Source: a phage. From it: a stretch of DNA of 64,000 bases. Numbering within the stretch: position 1 is the stretch's first letter; every line of letters begins with the position of its first letter. Positions 13,347-15,027 of the stretch are shown here, in pieces. A program made the position numbers and the translations under genes. The stretch lies in the sequence record PX246730.1; one strand, written 5' to 3'. A model generated the notes under the pieces. The model saw only the letters and a program-made list of their open reading frames with translations. It was not told the DNA's origin and ran no database searches.

Positions 13347-13849
13347 ACGTCTATCAAATCCCTTATACAGCCCTTTCCCTTTCCTTTCCAGAATCTATCC
13401 CACTGATTCGATAGTGATTCAGGTAATGAATTACCCTCATAGAACCTAGCTCATACCTTAAAAAGCAATAACTCTATAGTCTACCCTATAGCCTTTTATC
13501 AAATCAACTAAGTGGCATTGTTACCAATCCCTTAAATACAAGCCCATAGCCCGAAAGGGAAGGGCAACCCCTAAAACGCTCTATAAAGCTCTATAACAGC
13601 CTTATCAACCTAACTTAAGGGATTGCATTACCTCACCCTTAAAAGCCCTTTATAGAGCTTCCCAGAGCCTTAAAAGAATCTTATAAGGGTGTGAGCTTTA
13701 TTATCTCGTTAGTATCCTTGTGAACTACTAAACAACCCCTTGATAGTCACTAAAAAGTATGTTATAGGGGTTTAAAAGTTACTTTGAAGTTACGTAAAAG
13801 GGGCTATAAAGTTACGTAAATGCTAGCCCCTTTAACATTTTTTAACAAT

Positions 13850-14940
13850 TCTTTAACAAACCCTACATAGTTATGTTTGTTAGAGACTTGTTAGCCCCTT
13901 GTTAAATCTCTGTTAAGACCACGTAAAAGCCTTGTAAGAGTCTTTGACATAGCCTTAAAAGCTCCTGTAAAGCCTTATAAAGAGCTTTCTACATAGTTGG
14001 GGTGTAATTACTAGGAAGAGCCTAAAAAGAGCTTATAAGGGGCTATAAAGGGCTTTTAAAAGGGCTATTTAAAAGGTCACTAAGAGGGAAAGGGAACGAT
14101 AAGACCAGAGATAGTGACCATGTTAATAGCTTGTTAAAAAGGTTAAACACTTGTTAGGAACTTGTTAATTATCTAATTGGTATTGTTATGAGGATGCTTC
14201 ATCCGAATCATCTACCAATCCCTACAAAATAACCCTTTAAAATTAACTATATAGCACTTGTTAGTCATCTATTAAGATTCTGTAAAGCCTATTCAGCACT
14301 TGTTAATGGACTGTTACCCTCTTGTTAGTTCTATTAAGAAACTGTTAAAACCTTTGGAGAGATGTTAAAAAGATGTGAGAACTGTTAAGAGATTGTTAAG
14401 GATATTTTAAAATTTTGCAAAGGGGGTGTTAAGGAGCTGTTAAGGGCTACCAAGCAGATATACATCCTAATCAGATATTTTTCAGTTCCTTCAAAGACCC
14501 TAAAAAATGACTTGATAGTCTTATTTTATAAAAATTTTAAGATTCTGAATAATTACCTATACAGCCTTTTAAAAATACAGGTAGAAACAGGCTTATAAGA
14601 TACCTTGTTAGTACCGTGTTAGACCTTGTGAGATAAGGTCTGTAAAGATATTCCTGTTAAGTTTGTTAAAACAGTCTATATAGAGGCTTAGTAGTACCTA
14701 GTGAACACCTATAGAGAGTGTCATAGCTTACCTAGAGGTTAAGAGGTGTATAGGAGCTTCTAAGAGTGTGTAGAGAGATGATTAAGGTGATTGTATAGGT
14801 TGTTTAGAAGGCTTGTTAGAGGGCTTGTTAGAAGGGTTATACAGATGGCTATTAAGACCACTAGATAGTTACTAAGATACTATATAGTACTATATAACTA
14901 TATATAGAGAGTAAGCTTAAGAAGGTTGTTAAGAAGGGTA
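13850..14940. repeat. dense array of short iterated words (YTGTTAR, CTTAAAAG, CTATAAAG, CTTATAAG) in ORF-free region
   Basis: 25 or more YTGTTAR copies and many palindromic CTTATAAG-type boxes; no ORF >=60 aa on either strand. Confidence 0.7.
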
Positions 14941-15027
14941 GATATTTTATTCACATATGATGGTGACCCATAGGTTGGGACAACCGATAAAATTTTATAA
15001 AAATTATAAATTTCGTAAATTTTACTC

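Follow-up and report, generated by a model that had tools for sequence, protein, structure and literature searches.

The region considered here is a 1.7-kb stretch free of open reading frames (ORFs), positions 13350 to 15027 of a 64,000-nucleotide phage sequence (record PX246730.1, the whole of which is called the window), and on comparison with related genomes it is best read as a collapsed genome-end (concatemer) junction in which right-end DNA, one copy of a direct terminal repeat (DTR) and left-end DNA follow one another. A preliminary description, made from the letters alone, had pictured the region as a mosaic of short iterated words between convergent terminators and had named four candidates without choosing among them: a replication origin, a packaging or terminal-repeat junction, a partition-like binding array and a non-coding RNA locus. 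The terminal-repeat or packaging junction is the candidate that gains, with genome ends and a DTR of about 0.6 kb mapping inside the region, while the non-coding RNA locus loses, with no Rfam match and weak folds; the DTR could not have been seen earlier because a single collapsed assembly was all that was available. The DTR very probably has the position and extent 13826-14451, and the favoured reading as a whole, a chromosome terminal region with a collapsed DTR and words that guide packaging, is given a probability of about 0.58.

A megablast search with the region returned 256 phage records, 169 of which cover at least 80% of the query; with a single exception their names refer to enterobacterial hosts or to Felixounavirus. 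Every record inspected belonged to Felixounavirus, Mooglevirus or Suspvirus, the region being annotated in these relatives with nothing, with tiny non-conserved ORFs or as a 'repeat_region'. By this similarity the window is assigned to Felixounavirus, a Felix O1-like myophage, evidently assembled as a permuted circle and opened near rIIA, which passages of the Felix O1 genome paper give as the convention of the group (PMC3185647). Several relatives' records have their first base precisely at query position 527, equivalent to window position 13826. Comparison of both ends in five related GenBank records from independent submissions revealed the same sequence at the two ends of each, an exact duplication of 570 bp in Citrobacter phage HP1 (annotated repeat_region), 581 bp in D4, 591 bp in ZX4221, 651 bp in NBEco005 and 581 bp in Pr103Blw (annotated 'short direct terminal repeat'). 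The termini are fixed and non-permuted, with all five records sharing the first bases of the DTR, GCCCCCTTAACA (GCCCCCTTAACATTT), and its last bases, TGTTAAGGGCTACC, and with the outer junctions (a slash marking the cut) ...AAATGCTA/GCCCC... and ...GGGCTACC/AAGCAGATATACA matching window positions 13825/13826 and 14451/14452. The length of the DTR among relatives ranges from 570 to 651 bp, small indels being common.

In keeping with this, passages of published reports give DTRs determined by PhageTerm of 581 bp in Pr103Blw (PMC8303462), of 613 bp in the Felix O1-like phage Ro111lw (PMC6454146) and in four Felixounavirus phages, D4 among them (PMC11737134), and HP1 is reported to have direct repeats at each terminus (PMC9120918); the 'short terminal repeats' of the Felix O1 genome paper are presented there as inferred from a size difference alone (PMC3185647). 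The DTRs so described for Ounavirinae (Pr103Blw, Ro111lw, HP1 at 570 bp and the short DTR of Kolesnikvirus) are the same element, with boundary sequences identical to those of the window (PMC8303462, PMC6454146, PMC9120918, PMC11984208). That Felix O1-like phages have short DTRs is already known from the literature and from GenBank annotations.

The run from 13269 to 15065 (1797 bp) lacks ORFs of at least 60 amino acids (aa) on either strand and is the longest such run in the window, the second longest being the tRNA cluster (1194 bp), so that the ORF-free region of some 1.7 kb claimed in the preliminary description is real. The convergent terminators reported at its edges are likewise confirmed, both hairpins folding well with a U-run after each, and the Moogle record annotates a terminator at the place equivalent to 13320-13349. 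Convergence is expected because the genes at the two ends are transcribed outward toward the termini, and it fits the judgement in the preliminary description that something other than a simple promoter region is at hand, a scan of the region for sigma-70-like promoters having found 13 sites against 8.4 ± 2.7 expected, not above chance. Protein-coding genes conserved at this position in relatives would have spoken for frameshifted pseudogenes; no ORF of at least 35 aa is common to the regions of 13 relatives.

What fills the region instead is words. Exact copies of YTGTTAR number 22 between 13842 and 14932 (20 on the plus strand, two on the minus strand), with 57 in the remaining 62.3 kb, and 2000 dinucleotide-preserving shuffles of the region gave a mean of 1.96 (standard deviation 1.39) and a maximum of 8. 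The enrichment asserted earlier thus holds against every shuffle; the accompanying count of at least 25 does not, being reached only with the core TGTTA, which occurs 28 times on the plus strand and four times on the minus strand. A second word family, CTWWWAAG, which covers CTTATAAG, CTTAAAAG and CTATAAAG, stands at 12.5 per kb in the region and 1.38 per kb elsewhere, a nine-fold difference. Both families are placed on an 11-nt lattice, a feature absent from the preliminary description. Ten nearest-neighbour gaps between TGTTA words are exactly 11 nt and the others are 20-22 or 31-33 nt; the autocorrelation of bases peaks at lags 11, 22 and 32 (0.382 at lag 11 and 0.344 at lag 22 over a baseline of about 0.25), the excess at lag 11 being 0.15 in the region as against 0.015 ± 0.018 (maximum 0.061) in windows elsewhere; and the program TRF reports several arrays of period 11. 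Arrays of TGTTA adjoin both DTR boundaries and point toward them, and beyond the DTR, about 78 nt to the left of it and about 50 nt to the right, lie the two copies of a 21-nt direct repeat (Table 1). Longer repeat families in the region are only 62-78% identical.

Table 1. Features of the terminal region and its edges, in window coordinates; the slash marks the putative cut.
Feature	Coordinates	Strand	Details
Intrinsic terminator closing the rightward gene block	13320-13349	+	hairpin 13320-13343 then U6; -11.9 kcal/mol, z -4.4
Right-end unique non-coding DNA, top strand C-rich	13350-13825		CTWWWAAG-type words on 11-nt lattice (e.g. 13578-13610)
21-nt box CTAAACAACCCCTTGATAGTC	13728-13748	+	repeat family; 78 nt outside left DTR boundary
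Left DTR boundary ...GTTACGTAAATGCTA/GCCCCTTTAACA	13812-13840		putative cut 13825/13826; near-invariant in 13 genomes
Single collapsed DTR copy, 626 bp	13826-14451		mapped from relatives' terminal duplications
Three TGTTA words pointing to left boundary	13833-13858	-	10-11 nt apart; exact in 11-13 of 13 genomes
Four YTGTTAR words	13877-13916	+	exact 11-nt spacing
11-nt phased arrays of GCCTTAAAAG, GCTTATAAGG and GGCTATAAAGG inside DTR	13940-14080		TRF period 11 at 14022-14068
Four-TGTTA array	14121-14168	+	spacings 11, 20, 11 nt; exact in 12-13 of 13 genomes
51-bp insert TAATTGGTATTGTTATGAGGATGCTTCATCCGAATCATCTACCAATCCCTA	14174-14224	+	flanked by inverted ATTGGTA and TACCAAT; internal hairpin GGATGcttCATCC; sporadic
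Nine TGTTA words up to right boundary	14301-14443	+	spacings 11, 20, 33 nt; 7 of 9 exact in 12-13 of 13 genomes
Most conserved core, right boundary	14382-14464		CTGTTAAGAGA at -70, ATTTTGCAAAGG at -40, ...TGTTAAGGGCTACC/AAGCAGATATACA; putative cut 14451/14452
Left-end unique non-coding DNA	14452-15027		TGTTA pairs at 14605-14669, 14813-14831 and 14926; TA-rich CTATATAG block 14877-14906
Second copy of 21-nt box, CTAAAAAATGACTTGATAGTC	14500-14520	direct repeat	about 50 nt outside right boundary; 81% identical to CTAAACAACCCCTTGATAGTC
Intrinsic terminator closing the leftward gene block	15026-15057	-	hairpin 15057-15034 then U-run; -15.2 kcal/mol

Conservation was assessed in an alignment of 13 junctions from three genera (Felixounavirus, Mooglevirus and Suspvirus), in which the region is 80-90% conserved from about 13570 to 14960 and varies only at 13369-13468 and in the 51-bp insert, so that within the right-end DNA the part from 13570 to 13825 is conserved. 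TGTTA positions are better kept than the others, with conservation of 0.92 as compared with 0.79 overall, and of 0.88 as compared with 0.70 in the five most divergent genomes, and twelve TGTTA sites of the DTR are unchanged in every one of the 13 genomes across the three genera; in the array leading up to the right boundary the least conserved words are those at 14312 (exact in 11 of 13) and 14427 (10 of 13). This conservation of word positions points to purifying selection on the region. Identity with Moogle is 78% over the full length of the region; the 201-aa gene next to it reaches only 48% protein identity with its Moogle counterpart and aligns by blastn over only about 217 of 606 nt. At the right boundary, 29 nt, TGTTAAGGGCTACCAAGCAGATATACA(T/C)C, are invariant in the 13 genomes save for the one T/C column. 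A scan of IMG/VR for the right-boundary 21-mer found 29 contigs with one match each and nothing new, and the flanking 201-aa protein, used as a query for distant relatives, led back to the same three genera only, TerL being needed to reach Kolesnikvirus.

The Erwinia phages of the genus Kolesnikvirus reached in this way, at 69% aa identity in TerL, extend the comparison to a fourth genus. In Erwinia phage SunLIRen a syntenic ORF-free stretch, too diverged to appear in the megablast results, lies at 16280-17696 between convergent gene blocks and holds TGTTAA 17 times on the plus strand and seven times on the minus strand, with 13 copies of GTTAAGA against 0.08 expected. Its left edge has minus-strand copies followed by plus-strand copies, the same flip in orientation as in the window, its autocorrelation at lag 11 is 0.367, and the word of its left flank, CTTCTAAG, is different but similar and sits on the same 11-nt lattice. 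The elements CTGTTAAGAGA at -70, ATTTTGCAAAGG at -40 and AAGCAGATATACA at 0 have identical offsets from the right boundary in the window and in SunLIRen, and, as regards the 21-nt boxes, CCCTTGATAG is also present in SunLIRen, 105 nt to the right of the predicted boundary. From boundary similarity the SunLIRen DTR was predicted at 16836-17274 (439 bp). In query coordinates the predicted ends are 557 and 995, and independent Kolesnikvirus records start at 556-558 or stop at 997, an agreement to within 1-2 nt. Short DTRs in Kolesnikvirus are also suggested by PhageTerm in passages of a published study (PMC11984208). With the same ORF-free architecture in SunLIRen, the terminal architecture is therefore common to all four Ounavirinae genera examined.

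In the right-end non-coding DNA of SunLIRen (16400-16740) an 11-nt-phased (T/C)TTCTAA(G/A) takes the place of the window's CTWWWAAG, with the TGTTAAG word common to both phages. This suggests two separate readers of the words, one of which may have diverged together with its sites. A hairpin that can be drawn across the left boundary of the window (13798-13833, -15.9 kcal/mol) was rejected as a functional element, since its 5' arm is deleted or mismatched in several relatives and the hairpin as a whole is absent in SunLIRen.

The large terminase gene, TerL (30294-31910), encodes a T4-type enzyme with Terminase_6N/6C domains that is at least 99% identical in 206 records, including the sampled Felixounavirus genomes, and that shares 31% identity with TerL of phage ICP1, a member of the same terminase family. 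More distant TerL relatives include PaP1-like phages, whose genome is called terminally redundant in the title of one report (PMC3652863), so that the lineage is one in which packaging goes with terminal repeats.

The following scheme would connect the ends, the words and the terminase. In replicating concatemers, right-end DNA, DTR and left-end DNA would form the junction of successive genomes, and the TGTTA(A/G) words and those of the second family, lying on one face of the helix because of their 11-nt lattice, would point outward to each boundary. The phased words would offer a binding scaffold for a recognition factor, the equivalent of a small terminase, which once assembled would place TerL for cutting at two fixed conserved sites, GCTA/GCCCC on the left and GGGCTACC/AAGCAGATATACA on the right. 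Cuts in opposite strands and strand-displacement synthesis would then give each packaged genome a full repeat at both ends; in T7, staggered cuts followed by strand-displacement synthesis have been proposed for the duplication of the ends. At each boundary TGTTAA(A)GGG(G)C faces outward, as TGTTAAAGGGGC/TAGC on the bottom strand at the left and as TGTTAAGGGCTACC/AAGC at the right, and such outward cores would suit an enzyme sitting in opposite orientation, and hence on opposite strands, at the two sites. The proposal that the words are a recognition scaffold for packaging or for generating the termini, although the likeliest of the roles considered for them, is put forward tentatively, as one that could well prove wrong. 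Still more speculative, and in our judgement doubtful, is the extended version in which the whole 1.7 kb would be one end-processing nucleoprotein platform of all Ounavirinae, with two lattice word families and an orientation flip at the left boundary, read by an unrecognised type of small terminase or recognition factor in this TerL lineage (Felix O1, ICP1, PaP1-like and rV5-like phages) and setting both the two cuts and the measuring and duplication of the DTR, possibly along with an origin or end protection.

Several points weigh against the favoured reading. The termini of the present phage are placed by homology to relatives' records whose ends have experimental support. No small terminase (TerS) is recognisable; the sole ORF directly upstream of TerL (30087-30287), of 66 aa, belongs to PHROG 4397, of unknown function, and has no PDB relative, and the genes flanking the terminal region have no Pfam domains and fall in PHROGs of unknown function, so that none of these products is recognisable as a reader of the words. 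The two cuts are offset from the shared GGGC core by 0 nt and 4 nt, an imperfect symmetry, and this 4-nt difference rules out an exact fit of a symmetric-nuclease model, which can be taken only loosely. Moreover, GGGCTA and TGTTA recur many times in the region and not only at the cut sites, phased words would be equally suited to an origin or to an array for nucleoid proteins, and the conserved non-coding DNA that flanks the DTR, some 0.5 kb to either side, exceeds what known pac or cos sites require; other functions may therefore be layered in the region.

One candidate for such a function would be replication. In an origin, instead of or beside packaging, the words would be initiator sites and the TA-rich block an unwinding element, which would account for repeats that are dense, oriented and helically phased, for the six copies of TATATA (0.13 expected) in the conserved block 14877-14906, for conserved non-coding DNA beyond the needs of a pac site and for the change of sign of GC skew within the region. 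We regard an origin as unlikely, with a repeat unit of 11 nt and a core of 5-7 nt in place of the 17-22 bp direct repeats typical of iterons, no gene recognisable as an initiator among its neighbours, whose PHROGs are of unknown function, and with the two cut sites as the centres about which both the orientation of the words and the best-conserved blocks are arranged; GC skew across the window tracks the direction of transcription and hence gives no origin signal. A further rival is an array to which a nucleoid protein of the host, or a phage protein that binds DNA ends, would attach, in order to protect the ends from exonucleases, to anchor the end that is packaged last and ejected first, or to condense the DNA, and not for recognition by terminase. 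In its favour are the location of the words at both physical ends, together with their 11-nt phasing and the AT-rich, probably curved DNA, both of them typical of nucleoid-protein targets. An IHF-consensus match near the left boundary (13733-13745, minus strand), overlapped by the 21-nt box there, also speaks for it, but such matches in the region are at chance level (8 against 6.1 expected), the words are conserved base by base, which is unusual for nucleoid proteins of low specificity, and much of the array lies hundreds of bp away from the ends, all of which makes a binding array of this kind improbable.

The length, conservation and lack of genes of the region would also suit a non-coding RNA transcribed from internal promoters, for which one sigma-70-like site matching 10 of 12 positions is at hand on the minus strand (14432-14404). 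We give this very little credence, since promoter-like sites are at chance level, an Rfam scan of 13000-15300 found no match at E up to 1, and consensus folds of the 13 genomes on both strands are weak, at some -2 to -12 kcal/mol for each 120 nt, save for the terminators at the edges, leaving neither a known family nor a conserved fold; z-scores for these folds from column shuffles were inflated and were disregarded. The 11-nt periodicity is, besides, a property of the DNA helix. That the region consists of decayed genes, or of neutral, functionless repeats made by slippage, could be argued from the tiny ORFs annotated in a few records from a DTR whose length varies from 570 to 651 bp and from the commonness of small indels, yet it is hardly credible for a region that is better conserved than the neighbouring gene, keeps its word positions across genera and shares no ORF of at least 35 aa among 13 genomes.

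The favoured reading, a terminal region with packaging words, can be set beside known systems. T7 and T3 reportedly have a DTR of 160-230 bp, pac elements and arrays of short heptamers just inside each copy of the repeat, and the window phage would resemble them in a non-permuted genome with a short DTR, in a single DTR copy at the concatemer junction, in short iterated words beside the repeat and, presumably, in duplication of the ends during packaging. It differs from them in being a myovirus with a T4-type TerL, in a DTR three to four times longer and in having words both inside and outside the DTR, and it has no phage RNA polymerase promoter, which is said to be needed for T7 packaging. 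The pac hexamers of P1, the R-sites of lambda cosB with IHF, and pacL and pacR of SPP1 are repeated, phased sub-sites spanning about 100-250 bp. As in those sites, a fixed point of cleavage is flanked by several copies of short words in helical phase, as would fit a wrapped nucleoprotein complex, and the TGTTA arrays of the window lie, like pac and cos elements, next to the boundaries where cleavage would occur; unlike in those sites, the words span about 1.1 kb and there are two cut sites. The closest experimentally studied analogue documented is Vibrio phage ICP1, with its related TerL, for which passages of one study describe a pac site in an intergenic region of 489 bp, two cut sites separated by 577 bp, and a TerS not yet identified (PMC11417361). 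ICP1 differs in being treated as a headful (pac) phage and in that word arrays are not reported in the keyword-matched passages of that study, the comparison being one of descriptions and not of sequences (PMC11417361).

Published reports on DTRs of Felix O1-like phages give, in their keyword-matched passages, the length or presence of the repeat alone, with no description of the 1.7-kb ORF-free region, the phased words or the boundary cores, and the corresponding passages of the papers on Felix O1, wV8, VpaE1, the Bas63 cryo-EM structure and PhageMaP hold nothing specific on the region. To the extent of such passages, what seems new is the ORF-free terminal platform of 1.4-1.8 kb, the two word families on an 11-nt lattice with a flip in orientation, and a right-boundary core kept from Felixounavirus to Kolesnikvirus. 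To a specialist the surprise will be modest, the repeat itself having been published for relatives; it would be more notable if the arrays proved to be the docking platform for the missing recognition subunit of this terminase lineage. Locating the true genome ends matters for correct annotation, and the ends and the cis-acting packaging signals must be kept when Felix O1-type therapeutic or diagnostic phages are engineered or their synthetic genomes rebooted. To our knowledge, little is understood beyond T7 and T3 of the way in which phages recognise, cut and duplicate short terminal repeats, and the boundary cores (especially 14382-14464) together with the TGTTA arrays would be defined baits for the missing recognition factor and defined targets for mutation.

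The 51-bp insert lies outside the conserved architecture. It is missing from the equivalent position in 11 of 12 aligned relatives, with a shorter insert in FGS030, and the element occurs in only three of 50,697 phage records: NBEco004 in the same orientation, NBEco005, which holds it inverted and elsewhere in its DTR, and EC106. Possibly this is a very small hairpin element able to move or to invert. In Moogle a variant of the element, ATGAGGTAGATTCTACCGAATCA, with a compensated stem, is inserted a short way beyond the right DTR boundary.

The last gene before the right-end non-coding DNA (13068-13268) encodes 66 aa of PHROG 15633; at the equivalent place FGS030 has a different gene, of 82 aa and PHROG 4559, and the other relatives inspected have a coding sequence of 249-252 bp, a pattern that indicates a gene replacement adjoining the genome end. 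The rightward early block contains reiterated intergenic cassettes (8078-13080 and 8545-13309), among them an element of about 75 nt that ends at the start codon and is present in six copies (8078, 9745, 10609, 11825, 12404 and 12986) of 87-93% identity, and an identical 29-nt hairpin, GGGGCTTATAGTTCGATAAAGTAAGCCCC, in five copies. Comparable intergenic direct repeats are listed in passages of the Felix O1 paper (PMC3185647). Words of the early-block hairpins (GGGGCTTATAG and TAAAG) are similar to those that make up the second family in the terminal region.

Elsewhere in the window, the portal encoded downstream of TerL is Mu-like, and 24 tRNA genes cluster on the plus strand at 25026-29864. 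The 5' end of a 316-aa ORF (28740-29690) lies over tRNA genes, and the ORF matches PHROG 2114 only from residue 79; the gene therefore probably starts near 28975.

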